DNA of 40,323 bases, taken from positions 1 to 40,323 of the IMG/VR virus record IMGVR_UViG_650377933_000001; one strand, given 5' to 3'. This DNA is from a virus. Lineage: Duplodnaviria > Heunggongvirae > Uroviricota > Caudoviricetes. Shown piece by piece: positions 34,240 through 39,795 of the stretch. Every line of letters begins with the position of its first letter. Within the stretch, counting starts at the first letter, position 1. Both the position numbers and the translations under genes were made by a program. The notes below the pieces were generated by a model. It was not told the origin of the DNA. It searched no databases and was given only the letters and a program-made list of their open reading frames with translations.

Positions 34240-34334
34240 TTAGTCGTCCACGGATGGATTGATCTTATCTCGTGCTTCACATTTGAATGGTTTGTCATTA
34301 GGATGTTTCCGGTTTTTTAGATATGGAAATTGAT

Positions 34335-34754
34335 ATGAAGAGGATTATTAGCGTCGTTGCTGGCGCTATCATGTTATCTGGGTGCGCAACTATTGTTGGT
34401 GATGAAACGCAACTTGTGCAAGTGAACAGCAACCCTTCCGGTGCGAGCTTTAAGGTAAAAGATGAATCAGGCGTGATTGTTGCGCAAGGCAAGACTCCAC
34501 AAGGAGTAACTCTTGCCAAGTCAGATGGTAGTTATTTTGGCAAAAAGAGCTACCAGATCACTATGGAAAAGGATGGGTACGAACCAGTTACCCTGCCAAT
34601 CAAAGCCAATGCTAATGGTTGGTATATTGGTGGAAACCTTGTGTTTGGTGGGTTAATTGGTTGGCTTGCTGTAGATCCTTTTAATGGTGGGATGTATACA
34701 TTGAAGCCAAAAGAGGCAAATGCATCTCTTATACCTTCTACGAAGCAAGATTAA
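34335..34754 (+). CDS. Putative lipoprotein (139 aa), lysogenic-conversion or exclusion candidate
   Basis: Signal peptide with lipobox MKRIISVVAGAIMLSGC; followed by a strong intrinsic terminator, so probably expressed as its own unit. Confidence 0.6.
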   Translation: MKRIISVVAGAIMLSGCATIVGDETQLVQVNSNPSGASFKVKDESGVIVAQGKTPQGVTLAKSDGSYFGKKSYQITMEKDGYEPVTLPIKANANGWYIGGNLVFGGLIGWLAVDPFNGGMYTLKPKEANASLIPSTKQD

Positions 34755-34798: not shown

Positions 34799-34984
34799 AT
34801 GACCATAGAAGAACGCCTGAACAACATTGAGTTGAACCAAACCCTGCTTGACCAGCGACTTTCAGATCTTGAGCTTAAAGATCTTGATGCGCAAATATCA
34901 GAAGCAGAAGCCAAGCTCTCCAGCTTAAACCACCGCAAGAAGCAAATCCGCAACAGAATTACTCAGGGACGCGGAAGCTGTTGA
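34799..34984 (+). CDS. Small hypothetical coiled-coil protein (61 aa)
   Basis: AAGGAG RBS 5 nt upstream of ATG; 3' end overlaps the convergent 34959-35168 ORF by 26 nt. Confidence 0.35.
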   Translation: MTIEERLNNIELNQTLLDQRLSDLELKDLDAQISEAEAKLSSLNHRKKQIRNRITQGRGSC

Positions 34985-35760: not shown

Positions 35761-36684
35761 ATGACGAGTGTAGCAATTGCAGAACATACAATCAACGTTC
35801 CATTCCACGGAACAAATCTCTTTTTGGTCAGCATTAACAATGAACCTTACGTTCCTATGAAACCCGTTGTAGAAGGCATGGGTATGGTTTGGGCTGCTCA
35901 ATTTGTTAAATTAAAACAGAGATTTGTCAAAGGTATTTCGGAAATCGAAATACCTTCTGCTGGCGGTAAACAGTTAATGATATGCCTTGCCTTTCGTAAG
36001 TTTGCGGCTTGGCTTTCAAGCATTCAGCCTAACAAAGTCCGCCCTGAAATCCGCGACAAGGTAATCCGGTATCAGGAAGAGTGTGACGATGTGCTCTACG
36101 AGTACTGGACTAAAGGTCATGTAGTTAACCCACGCAAAGCTAAAAAGGCGTTGCCGGGTAAAATCACCACTGAACAGCAGGAAGCCATTAAACAACTCGT
36201 CATGAGTCGCGGTCAGTCTCTGCCAAAGGAAAAACAGGCTAAGGCGATGATCACCATGTGGTCGTCACTGAAATCCCATTTTGGATGTTCATACAAAGAA
36301 ATCAGTGAGGAGCAGTTTACCGAAGCACTGTCACTTGCAGCTCGAGTTCCGCTTGAAGGTGAGTTCATTGGCAAACAAGAGAAGAAAACCAACGAGCTTT
36401 CTGCAAAAGAAGCAAACAGCCTTGTATGGTTATGGGATTATGCCAACCGCTCACAGGCATTATTCCGCGAACTGTATCCGGCATTAAAACAAATTCAATC
36501 GAACTATTCCGGCAGATGCTACGACTACGGTCATGAATTCTCGTATGTTATCGGAATGGCGAGAGACGTTTTAATCAATCACACACGAGATGTTGATATC
36601 AATGAGCCAGACGGACCAACGAATCTTTCCGCATGGATGAGACTTAAGAATAAAGAATTACCTCCTTCAGTACATAACTACTGA
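35761..36684 (+). CDS. ant: Antirepressor Ant (307 aa)
   Basis: Large ORF downstream of arc in the P22 immI arrangement; followed by an intrinsic terminator. Call rests mainly on synteny and size. Confidence 0.7.
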
Positions 36685-36702
36685 CAGATAACCAACGCAA
36701 CG

Positions 36703-36727
36703 ACCCAGCTTCGGCTGGGTTTTTTTA
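36703..36727 (+). terminator. Rho-independent terminator after ant
   Basis: ACCCAGC-TTCG-GCTGGGT followed by TTTTTTTT. Confidence 0.6.
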
Positions 36728-36794
36728 TGCTCAAAATTCACCGTAGCCATGCTGCGGCGATTCCTTGTATCTGGAGCAAATTAAATGACAGACA

Positions 36795-37304
36795 TTACCT
36801 ACCATGATTCTCATGATAACCATAGGTCTTTTCAGCCTCACGCCTTACAGCAATTGCATCATCGAGACTCTTAAAGTATCCGAGATTAATGCGCTTCCCT
36901 GCGTCGCTAATATATGCCACCCACTTTTTATGGGTCTTATGCCATGAAACCCCAGCGCACCCAGATGTATTGTTTGTGTATTTAGATTTGTTTTTTAGGT
37001 TTTCACCGAGACTAACTAGACGCAGGTTGTCTATTGAATTATTTAACCCGTTACCATCTTTATGGTCAATTTGCATTCCGGAAGGGATTTCACCATAAAA
37101 CATTTCCCATATTATCCTATGGGCGGCGTATATTTTATCTTGATACCTAATAATTATATAAGAGGTTTTCCTGTTCTTGTCCTTGAATATATGTCCTGCA
37201 GGCTTTTCTTTAGAGATATTAAACATTTTGGGTCTTGAAAGATATTGGTCACTCCAGTACAGGAGTCCATCGTCTTTTAATACGAATACTTCGTTCCAGT
37301 TCAT
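36795..37304 (-). CDS. HNH homing endonuclease with C-terminal AP2-like DNA-binding domain (169 aa)
   Basis: Start at MNWNEVFVLK with AAAGGTGG RBS; HNH motif ...QIDHKDGNGLNNSIDNLRLV...; C-terminal ...SGCAGVSWHKTHKKWVAYI...GYF...AIAVRREAEKTYGY resembles AP2 domains. The longer track ORF runs antisense into the tailspike start. Confidence 0.75.
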   Translation of the reverse strand: MNWNEVFVLKDDGLLYWSDQYLSRPKMFNISKEKPAGHIFKDKNRKTSYIIIRYQDKIYAAHRIIWEMFYGEIPSGMQIDHKDGNGLNNSIDNLRLVSLGENLKNKSKYTNNTSGCAGVSWHKTHKKWVAYISDAGKRINLGYFKSLDDAIAVRREAEKTYGYHENHGR

Positions 37305-37392
37305 GTTAACCACCTTTAAATAAAGTGCACTCATTATACAAAAAAACATGCTAGCAATGAATATTGCTGGCTTAACATATAGAGAAATTAAA

Positions 37393-39795
37393 ATGACAGA
37401 TTCAATAAATGCCAATGTTGTAGTGAGTATGCCTTCGCAACTCTTCACTATGGCGCGTTCTTTTAAAGCGGTTGCCAATGGCAAAATTTATATCGGTAAA
37501 ATTGACACTGACCCGGTAAATCCAGAAAACCAGATTCAGGTTTATGTAGAGAATGAAGATGGCTCTCACGTTCCTGTTGCACAGCCAATCATCATTAACG
37601 CTGGCGGGTATCCGGTATATAACGGACAGATTGCCAAATTCGTAACTGTACAGGGCCATTCTATGGCTGTTTATGATGCGTATGGTGCGCAGCAGTTCTA
37701 TTTTCCTAATGTGCTGAAGTATGACCCTGATCAGTTACGGCAGCAATTAGAAGACCCGGATGGTTCTAAAAAATATCCAGAATTGCAGATTGCACGATGG
37801 CGTGATGACAAAGACGTTCGCGGTTGGGGGGCTATCAGTGATGGAATAACTGACGCTACTGAGGCATTCTCTAACGCAGGCTATAGAATGTTTGTTCCTG
37901 ATGGCGATTTTGCAGTAAATACTCTCGAAGTTGATGTATCTTCTGCTCGAGGTATTGGGAGGATTGTTGCAGATAATGGCTCTCTTATTTCAGTTTCTCG
38001 TCTGCTTGAAACTGACAAACTTGCGCAGAGAAAAATGATGGAACCTTTTTTTGGTTTTCAGGGAGAAACAAACACAGAAATTTACCCTAATGCCAGAAAT
38101 GCGTTACAGGGGATCGCATATTGCCGTGTTAATGGCATTGAAAAACTATTTGTCACACAACGGCCTGTTGGGCCGACCTGGTCAGATAAAGAAAGAGTTC
38201 GTATTGTTGAGTTTAATCTTTATGATGATGGAAGGGTAGTAAACCATGTTGCGTATTCTCCAGAATTAAACCTTGGGCACGGTTTTGATCTTTCTGCCAT
38301 GGTGGAGAATGGTCAAGTATATTTATATACATCAAGTGTAACCAATTCAGGTGAAGATGGGGAGTCTGCAGGCAAAGGGTTTAGTAAAATAACTTGGCGA
38401 GGGGCAGGAACAACTCAGTCTGACGTAAAAAGTTATAATGTATGGGGGATTACTGGTAGCGGTCACCCATTTCAAGATTACAATCGTGCAGGAATTGCCA
38501 TTTCTTCTGACGGTCGTCTTTTAATAATGGTTAATACACCAAAGAGTGATGCCGCTAAACGAACTGTATTTATATACGATAAAATATCAATTGATAAACT
38601 TGAAGATAAAACATTAGCAAACCCCATGTTTGTTTGGGAAATGAGCGACTCACCTTCTGAAGGCGCTTACTCTGTACAAGGTATTGCGTCTGATGGAAGA
38701 TATATACATATACTTAAGGGAGGGGCTAACGCTTTTGGAAAGCATCATATCTTTACATATGATTTAACAGGTAATTTACTAAGAAAATTAGATATCGATG
38801 ATGCAAGGTCGCAATATGGGCGCGATGGGTTGCTTAACCATCCAACTCTTGGGAATCCAGCCAGATTTGAGCCGGAAGGTCTAACTATTCGTGGTGAAGA
38901 AATAATTATAAGCTGCATAGAAACATGGAGGGCAGGAGCTAATATTGTAAACTGGCGTGGAAGAAGATGGGCTGCATCATCCATTGAGACTTCTGGAATA
39001 ATTGGTGTCCCTCCATCAAATGGCTCTTATTGGGTAGAAACAACCAAGGATGCAAATTCTGGAGATTGGAGTCCTGAAATAGATTATGGATGGGGAAGTA
39101 GCTATTCTCTTGAGAAAAAGACAATTTACTCTATACGACCAGCGACTGGTAACAACGATGATCAGAACCTTAATTCTGGCATAACCAATGCTTCAAGTAA
39201 TGCAGGTGTAGATGCCGGAGAAAGCGGGCGAAATATATCATTTAGATGGCGCAATGCTTTTAATATTGTTGCATTTAGCGAACGTCTTGGTGAATACTTC
39301 AACGCTATTATGTATGATAATAGCTCAAGACTAAGAATATACGATCAGCAAAACGGTAGTGATAACACTGTTTATGGCTCAATCCAGGCACTATTTACGT
39401 CATCATTTAAGGGATTGATTTTAAGGGGTAGGGGGGTATCAGCATCAAATAGTTCCTATATTAGGTTACATTCATCTGATGATCCAAACTACCCAAATTC
39501 GATCATTGAAGGAACAAGAACAGATGGAAGTTTTTCCAGGGAAACAGATTCAAACGGAACCACTACATTCGCATCGGACTCAGAGCACGAACCGTTGCGT
39601 ATCAGAAGGGCTTCAGATGGTTTGTTGTTTGCATACGAGAAAGTAAGAGGTACAACTCTCTTTGGAATTTATAGAGGCTCCGGTTCACCTGAGGGTGTTG
39701 TGACCGCACCTCAGGGGTCAATGTATATTGATTATAATGGTGATTGGTATCAAAAGAAAACAGGAACAGGAAACACAGGATGGGTGTTAAAATAG
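37393..39795 (+). CDS. Tailspike protein: P22 gp9-like N-terminal head-binding domain fused to a divergent receptor-binding domain (800 aa)
   Basis: From [60 protein letters not shown]... the first ~115 aa match recalled P22 gp9; the remainder does not resemble the P22 endorhamnosidase as I recall it. Confidence 0.8.

Follow-up and report, generated by a model that had tools for sequence, protein, structure and literature searches.

The window analysed here, 40,323 nucleotides of viral DNA (Caudoviricetes; IMG/VR record IMGVR_UViG_650377933_000001), belongs to a P22-like (Lederbergvirus) prophage and carries a minus-strand gene for an HNH-type endonuclease between ant and the tailspike gene. 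ant lies at 35761-36684 and encodes P22_AR_N and P22_AR_C domains. It is followed by the intrinsic terminator t_ant (36702-36729, plus strand), found by a terminator scan and kept in phages CUS-3, Kapi1 and HK620. The open reading frame (ORF) of the endonuclease occupies 36795-37304; it starts with the ATG at 37304, ends with a TAA at 36795-36797 and specifies 169 amino acids. The tailspike gene runs on the plus strand from 37393 to 39795 and encodes 800 amino acids, with a P22-type Head_binding domain at residues 4-114 (Pfam, E=3.8e-65) and a Gally-type receptor-binding domain.

The structure of the locus became apparent on comparison with relatives that lack the homing-endonuclease gene (HEG). 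The start of the tailspike ORF in the HEG-less phages CUS-3 and Gally reads ...TCTGGAGCAAATTAA ATGACAGACATTACAGCCAATGT... The window retains, at 36772-36798, the old Shine-Dalgarno sequence and the initial 14 nt of that ORF, ATG included, and then has 612 nt absent from the relatives; homology with the HEG-less relatives restarts exactly at GCCAATGTTGT (37411). Aligned against the empty-site alleles of these two phages, ATGACAGACATTAC (MTDIT...) at 36785-36798 on the plus strand is seen to be the vestige of the ancestral tailspike ORF. The 612-bp block (36799-37410), hereafter the cassette, has sharp boundaries in 15 distinct HEG-bearing loci and replaces a single A relative to Gally; t_ant belongs to the normal upstream context and lies outside it. 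The cassette consists of the endonuclease gene, an 88-bp control region, a replacement Shine-Dalgarno sequence, and an ATG with six tailspike codons. The stop codon of the endonuclease gene is the complement of TTA (36795-36797) inside the vestigial ATTAC, and a variant vestige, ATGTCAGATATCAC, present in other HEG-bearing loci, gives the gene a TGA stop instead.

A Shine-Dalgarno-like sequence with an ATG and six codons (AGAGAAATTAAA ATGACAGATTCAATAAAT) closes the cassette on its right side. These codons (37393-37410, plus strand) encode MTDSIN and replace ATGACAGACATTACA (MTDIT) with 3 extra nt, so that the tailspike of the window now starts MTDSIN where the empty-site alleles of CUS-3 and Gally start MTDITANVV. 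The two tailspike starts form an imperfect 24-nt direct repeat on the plus strand. The left copy, ATCTGGAGCAAATTAAATGACAGA (36769-36792), holds the ancestral Shine-Dalgarno sequence and ATG and directly precedes the tailspike ORF in HEG-less phages; the right copy, ATATAGAGAAATTAAAATGACAGA (37377-37400), holds the replacement Shine-Dalgarno sequence and ATG and is identical in 14 of 14 deduplicated HEG-bearing loci. In a repeat search, the copies were 79% identical at a spacing of 608 nt. A preliminary description of this DNA had the gene inserted between ant and the tailspike gene. The adjoining genes are indeed those named, but the alignments place the cassette inside the original tailspike ORF, after nucleotide 14 (codon 5), and indicate that it repairs the gene that it interrupts: because it supplies a Shine-Dalgarno sequence, an ATG and six recoded codons, the tailspike gene is predicted to stay functional. 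For annotation, the tailspike start should be set at 37393, with a vestigial start site upstream. From the old ATG, with its intact Shine-Dalgarno sequence, a 29-codon ORF (MTDITYHDSHDNHRSFQPHALQQLHHRDS, then a stop) remains at 36785-36874 on the plus strand, antisense to the 3' end of the endonuclease gene; it is probably a translated by-product.

The 169-amino-acid protein matched HNH_3 (Pfam PF13392) at residues 59-102 with E=1.5e-20 and 72.9 bits, well above the gathering cutoff of 24.8. Its match to Pfam AP2 (E=5e-5, 23.9 bits) stayed below the gathering cutoff of 33.3; the fold and the homologues nevertheless support an AP2 domain. Among 52 homologues, HNH_3 matched all 52 and AP2 matched 34, the best AP2 match having E=3.5e-12. 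The AlphaFold model (pLDDT 93.3) has three parts, namely an N-terminal beta region (residues 1-58), a beta-beta-alpha-metal core (59-105; strands 77-81 and 94-98, helix 99-104) and a C-terminal domain (113-161). The latter, three strands and a helix, superposes on the AP2 domain of AtERF1 (1gcc) with an rmsd of 2.2 A over 53 columns, and also matches the AP2 domain of TEM1 with a Foldseek probability of 1.0.

The nearest solved structure by sequence was I-HmuI (phmmer, E=2e-5), whose structure 1u3e was also the top Foldseek match of the model (E=4.4e-4, probability 1.00). Residues D80, H81, N93 and N102 align with D74, H75, N87 and N96 of I-HmuI, which we take to be the Asp-His general base pair and two Asn with catalytic or metal-binding roles. 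In the alignment of the 52 homologues, H62, D80, H81, N89 and N93 are invariant, and N102 is conserved in at least 90%. PHROGs assigned the protein to phrog_99 ('HNH endonuclease'), and the identical coding sequence in other E. coli genomes bears the RefSeq label 'HNH endonuclease signature motif containing protein'. Given the HNH_3 match, the likeness to I-HmuI, the AP2 fold and the AP2 matches among homologues, the protein is an HNH-AP2 endonuclease with the full catalytic residue set of I-HmuI, and its activity is predicted. The preliminary description was thus right on the type of gene and its strand, and no catalytic residue has been lost that would mark a pseudogene. Its statement that the DNA is AT-rich holds in a modest sense, the flanks having a GC content of 43-47% and the gene one of 33-41%. 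A longer reading frame of 229 amino acids from a TTG at 37484 was dropped: it overlaps the tailspike start and lacks a Shine-Dalgarno sequence, and RefSeq and all homologues begin at the Met of MNWNE. Within the coding sequence, on the strand of the gene, positions 37106-37123 (minus strand) form a terminator-like hairpin with a T-run, probably a chance match.

The start codons of the endonuclease and tailspike genes are 88 bp apart, close to the ~90 bp first reported. On the minus strand of this spacer, a strong Shine-Dalgarno sequence, AAGGTGG (37310-37316), can be read 5 nt before the ATG of the endonuclease gene, and further upstream lies a candidate extended -10 element, TGTATAAT (37333-37340). 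A weak -35 (TTCATT, 37356-37361) stands at 17-nt spacing from the candidate -10 and matches at 3 of 6 positions. Five cassettes keep the motif TG(T/A)TATAAT, although their HNH proteins share only 64-83% identity and the spacer around it has drifted apart. From this conservation we infer that TGTATAAT is the endonuclease gene's own promoter. Counting against such a promoter, a generic sigma-70 scan of 36600-37500 called none; it missed the candidate because the -35 matches at only half of its positions. No plausible promoter in the tailspike direction was found in the 88-bp spacer, so that the tailspike gene is probably transcribed by read-through from upstream, now crossing the antisense endonuclease gene. 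Gene 9 of P22 is transcribed by read-through from upstream.

The inverted repeat AGCAAT-GAAT-ATTGCT, pointed out earlier at 37352-37367, does exist, one base further on, at 37353-37368, where it overlaps the putative -35 of the endonuclease gene; its arms can be extended to 9 nt with pairing at 8 of 9 positions. It is not above chance expectation: an equivalent repeat arose in 16% of shuffles of the 88-bp spacer, and the whole window contains 117 such repeats. Different palindromes occur at the homologous place in diverged cassettes, for example GTAATA-TT-TATTAC in locus L106. A role of the palindrome as an operator over the putative -35 is suggestive at most.

We then considered the distribution of the cassette. 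Among 5426 complete E. coli genomes, 927 matched the flanks and 14 carried the cassette, at 97.8-99.5% identity; IMG/VR yielded seven further copies. A scan of species-representative genomes with the single protein found it only in E. coli and, as a decayed copy, in Escherichia whittamii. When the DNA of the endonuclease gene was compared with isolated-phage records, only short matches to unrelated HNH genes were obtained, and the exact cassette was in none of these records. The presence of the gene at this position in relatives is thus sporadic rather than general. An empty site can be pointed to directly: the tailspike gene of Gally is 99.75% identical over 2400 nt, with differences essentially confined to the 5' codons. 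In these sequences, the pattern is that of a precise presence/absence polymorphism with an identifiable empty site, as known for homing-endonuclease genes.

The cassette is far better conserved than its surroundings. In the 15 distinct HEG-bearing loci, mean pairwise identity is 98.6% over the cassette (minimum 97.7%), 91.3% over the next 330 nt (the head-binding domain) and about 52% over the following 900 nt (the receptor domain); in the 300 nt to the left, the mean is 74% and the median 56%. The adjoining tailspikes are of 601, 621, 648, 649, 710, 719, 720, 746, 800, 811 and 825 amino acids, and the cassette stands beside at least 11 different receptor domains. Upstream, it occurs in three unrelated contexts, namely the ant terminator, mnt and gp16. 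The head-binding sequences of HEG-bearing loci do not cluster (mean identity 91.2% among them, 90.4-91.3% between classes). A cassette that is more conserved than its flanks and uncoupled from them points to horizontal spread.

The junctions allow this spread to be followed to the nucleotide. All HEG-bearing loci share the left junction down to the nucleotide. Beside it, the vestigial start occurs in the two versions given above, each corresponding to the HEG-less allele native to its own upstream context; three positions in the 11 nt next to the junction distinguish them, the closest lying 3 nt away. One insertion followed by homologous recombination would not readily give two vestiges at one junction. 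The variants can be explained if the cassette entered more than once, independently, at the same nucleotide and the end of the recipient was kept up to the break. On the right side, polymorphism restarts about 11 nt from the junction. One haplotype of the first 24 nt past the junction, GCCAATGTGATCGTA (MTDITANVIV; loci L026-L227), is present in 50 of 138 HEG-less MTDIT alleles and in none of 14 cassette-bearing or 36 MTDSIN alleles. It could be a naturally resistant variant of the target, a sign of co-conversion, or a matter of shared ancestry.

The MTDSIN start is also found without the endonuclease gene. Gapped BLAST queries of 70 nt matched both alleles, and alleles were counted by exact-pattern scans of IMG/VR, which gave 35 HEG-less MTDSIN junctions versus at least 120 MTDIT junctions, beside the seven cassette copies of that collection. 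In the HEG-less MTDSIN tailspikes, the exact six codons of the cassette are fused to normal upstream sequence. The cassette-type sequence AAATTAAAATG was present in 4 of 36 MTDSIN alleles versus none of 138 MTDIT alleles. The well-studied phage HK620 (AF335538; locus L270, 620-660) combines an MTDSIN start with cassette-type AAATTAAAATG and has no endonuclease gene there; its tailspike start looks like a footprint of loss or of immunity. In our locus sample, which is biased by the queries, MTDSIN makes up about a fifth of E. coli P22-like tailspike alleles, HK620 included. We suggest that such alleles, which lack the presumed target site, arose by recombination between the 24-nt repeats or by break repair via the right-hand repeat.

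The endonuclease gene is mostly intact. Its ORF is open in 15 of 16 copies; comparison of the window with another HEG-bearing locus (L012) showed 9 synonymous and 0 non-synonymous changes, and among more diverged allele pairs changes are mostly synonymous, with dN/dS of about 0-0.2. By these comparisons the gene is under purifying selection. Decay was found in L018, where a frameshift at about codon 105 removes the AP2 domain, and in the copy of E. whittamii Sa2BVA5 (L272, 2300-2870), which is missing roughly 58 codons from its 5' end and is further disrupted by a frameshift and an internal stop. In E. coli GDSC2227PM (NZ_CP135595; L004, 3000-7000), the prophage itself is a degraded remnant with partial genes and an internal stop in the tailspike gene; it still has an intact endonuclease gene, whose protein is identical to that of the window.

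Related lineages occupy the same place. Enterobacter ludwigii, Salmonella enterica and metagenomes supplied homologues with 83%, 75%, 66% and 64% identity, which lie divergently upstream of Head_binding tailspike genes. A vestigial ATG before the HNH stop was found at three of four such loci, recognisable in L107 and L111 and divergent in L106; L109 has none. The tailspikes beside these diverged homologues all begin M(T/S)DSI(T/N), with the extra Ser codon. A second HNH lineage is present in phage Kapi1 (MT813197, Kapi1_066; L001, 2550-3150) and 15 E. coli genomes. In every lineage, the insertion interrupts the sequence that spanned its site, and the functional copy of the tailspike start is recoded, with 3 nt more. 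One locus (L081) is a hybrid, with an MTDSIN start followed by a recoded stretch of the Kapi1 type.

Based on these observations, we consider it likely, with a probability of roughly three in four, that 36799-37410 is a free-standing homing-endonuclease cassette residing at codon 5 of a P22-like tailspike gene. The enzyme would recognise the uninterrupted sequence around the join of ATGACAGACATTAC and AGCCAATGTTGT in cassette-less P22-like phages or prophages and nick or cut it near ATTAC/AGCC. Recombinational repair templated by a cassette-bearing genome would then introduce the cassette and co-convert no more than a few nt beside it. The carrier would be immune because its presumed target, placed from the insertion point, is split and because its working copy has the recoded TTCAATAAAT in place of CATTACA. 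Tailspike transcription would be maintained by the upstream late or Pant promoters, reading across the antisense gene. Recombination at the 24-nt repeats, or repair via the right-hand copy, would delete the endonuclease gene and leave an immune MTDSIN start. It is possible, though we stop just short of calling it probable, that the whole forms a homing element that replaces a gene start, that its loss leaves endonuclease-immune MTDSIN alleles, and that an arms race of at least two endonuclease lineages, seated at one nucleotide, wrote the first six tailspike codons. Further, lysogens might express the endonuclease from its own promoter and thereby be armed against superinfecting relatives that lack the cassette.

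Several points weigh against the interpretation as a homing cassette. The target site is deduced from the insertion point only, and cleavage and transfer are predictions. The sample of loci is partly biased by the query patterns. MTDSIN could be an old natural variant instead of a footprint. The boundary between codons 4 and 5 is also used by an endonuclease-free replacement in phage JEP4, and the three upstream contexts are also present among HEG-less alleles; for these two reasons, the locus is a recombination hotspot regardless of the element. JEP4 (MT740315; L269, 1220-1425) has a normal upstream region and a vestigial ATGACAGATATTA; next come roughly 190 nt of AT-rich, unrelated sequence and then a tailspike whose N-terminus is not of the P22 type.

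These points bear most directly on a view in which the endonuclease is inactive here, or has another target, and the cassette is a passive passenger of ordinary recombination at the boundary between immI and the tailspike gene. The boundary is mosaic without the element, HEG-less loci showing all three upstream contexts and hybrid alleles; JEP4 has exchanged DNA at the same codon with no endonuclease; and the case for homing is itself built on sequence comparison. A mere passenger would nevertheless have to account for purifying selection on the gene and its conserved catalytic residues, for a junction that is nucleotide-identical beside two vestige variants differing 3 nt away, for a cassette far more conserved than the DNA directly beside it, and for the recoding of the functional tailspike copy exactly over the insertion point in every lineage. 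We regard this view as unlikely. Less likely again is the suggestion, made in the preliminary description, that the chimeric tailspike, with its conserved head-binding part and swapped receptor domain, results from an exchange of the adjacent gene driven by the endonuclease. A 5'-end break could promote recombination nearby, the same cassette does stand beside at least 11 receptor-binding domains, and homing-endonuclease genes at boundaries of genetic exchange in other phages are reported in PMC10448857. The tailspike's domain junction, however, is about 350 nt downstream of the cassette, where the head-binding domain ends, the same modular chimerism occurs in hundreds of HEG-less loci, and Gally has the same tailspike (99.75%) without the element. 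Moreover, the head-binding sequences of HEG-bearing loci form no cluster, and flanking polymorphisms cease to be linked with the cassette within about 11 nt to its right and about 3 nt to its left, so that the receptor-binding domain is not dragged along by the element. The suggestion therefore did not hold up, and the endonuclease should not be taken as the cause of receptor-domain swapping.

We also weighed a domesticated phage function, such as a packaging HNH protein like those beside HK97-like terminases or an AP2-type regulator of the tailspike gene, and find it very improbable indeed. A regulator would fit a DNA-binding AP2 domain encoded divergently from the tailspike gene, with a palindrome over the putative -35 and palindromes recurring there in diverged cassettes. 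Yet only about 1.5% of related loci have the gene, the phages Gally, CUS-3 and HK620 are viable without it, its catalytic residues are retained and decayed copies are tolerated. The standard gene order of P22 would presumably also place it far from the terminase genes, which speaks against a role in packaging.

As a homing cassette, the locus would offer a compact natural system for the study of homing in temperate phages, with a defined 612-bp element and a clear candidate target. Isolated phages in culture provide the partners, Gally with the empty site, HK620 with the putative immune footprint and Kapi1 with the rival lineage. The cassette would also explain why P22-like tailspikes start with either MTDIT or MTDSIN. 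Elsewhere in the neighbourhood, the immI region contains a plus-strand ORF at 34323-34754 with a lipoprotein-like signal peptide (MKRIISVVAGAIMLSGC), and the plus-strand ORF at 34799-34984 encodes a small coiled-coil protein; Kapi1 has an ORF annotated with an XhlA motif at the position of the latter. The two ORFs could be lysogenic-conversion or exclusion genes.

In the literature, we found no description of an endonuclease at the start of a P22-like tailspike gene. The epsilon34 paper mentions a different HNH, fused to eaE; for SEN22, the portion of the report available to us describes a gene for a homing endonuclease lying between those for terminase and portal and three other mobile-element insertions, whose positions it does not give; and in the Kapi1 paper 'HNH' occurs 0 times. 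Free-standing HNH-AP2 homing endonucleases are already known, and this protein already has a generic RefSeq annotation. New in detail are an architecture that replaces a gene start, the putative MTDSIN footprint of HK620 and the presence of two rival lineages at a single nucleotide; no new principle is involved. HNH(HNN)-AP2 homing endonucleases of phages, cyanobacteria and protists form a recognised family, as stated in PMC10448857 and PMC2248197, both citing Magnani et al. 2004. The gene of the window shares with this family the N-terminal HNH and C-terminal AP2 domains, the sporadic distribution and the degenerating copies. The HNH-AP2 copies of Xanthomonas phages described in PMC2248197 are scattered, without conserved flanks; the lineage of the window, in contrast, is faithful to the tailspike start region in phages of E. 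coli, Salmonella and Enterobacter.

With I-HmuI of Bacillus phage SPO1 (PDB 1U3E, HNH_3), the protein shares the D-H...N...N beta-beta-alpha-metal site and an N-terminal beta region before the HNH core. I-HmuI is encoded in a group I intron and has a C-terminal helix-turn-helix, whereas the protein of the window is free-standing and ends in an AP2 fold. I-HmuI nicks one DNA strand. The HNH protein of Kapi1 shares the left junction (ATGACAGACATTAC/CTAC), the orientation and the PHROG family, and its C-terminus aligns with the AP2 region of the window protein; it differs in being only 42% identical over 92 core residues, with no similarity detected outside the core. In Kapi1, only 22 nt separate the HNH gene from the tailspike ATG, and the stretch of the tailspike 5' end that its cassette recodes (MPEQLYNVVVSQPSQ) is about 75 nt long. 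Intronless homing and gene splitting are known from the free-standing homing endonucleases of T4-like phages, including SegF, MobE and that of the split nrdA of Aeromonas phage Aeh1. In these cases, as proposed here, the endonuclease gene lies beside or within an essential gene, the carrier is protected by differences in the target, and the function of the host gene is kept. The cassette of the window differs from them in that it is inserted 14 nt into an ORF and restores the gene with a ribosome-binding site of its own plus an ATG and six codons, with no protein splitting, splicing or intergenic gap.

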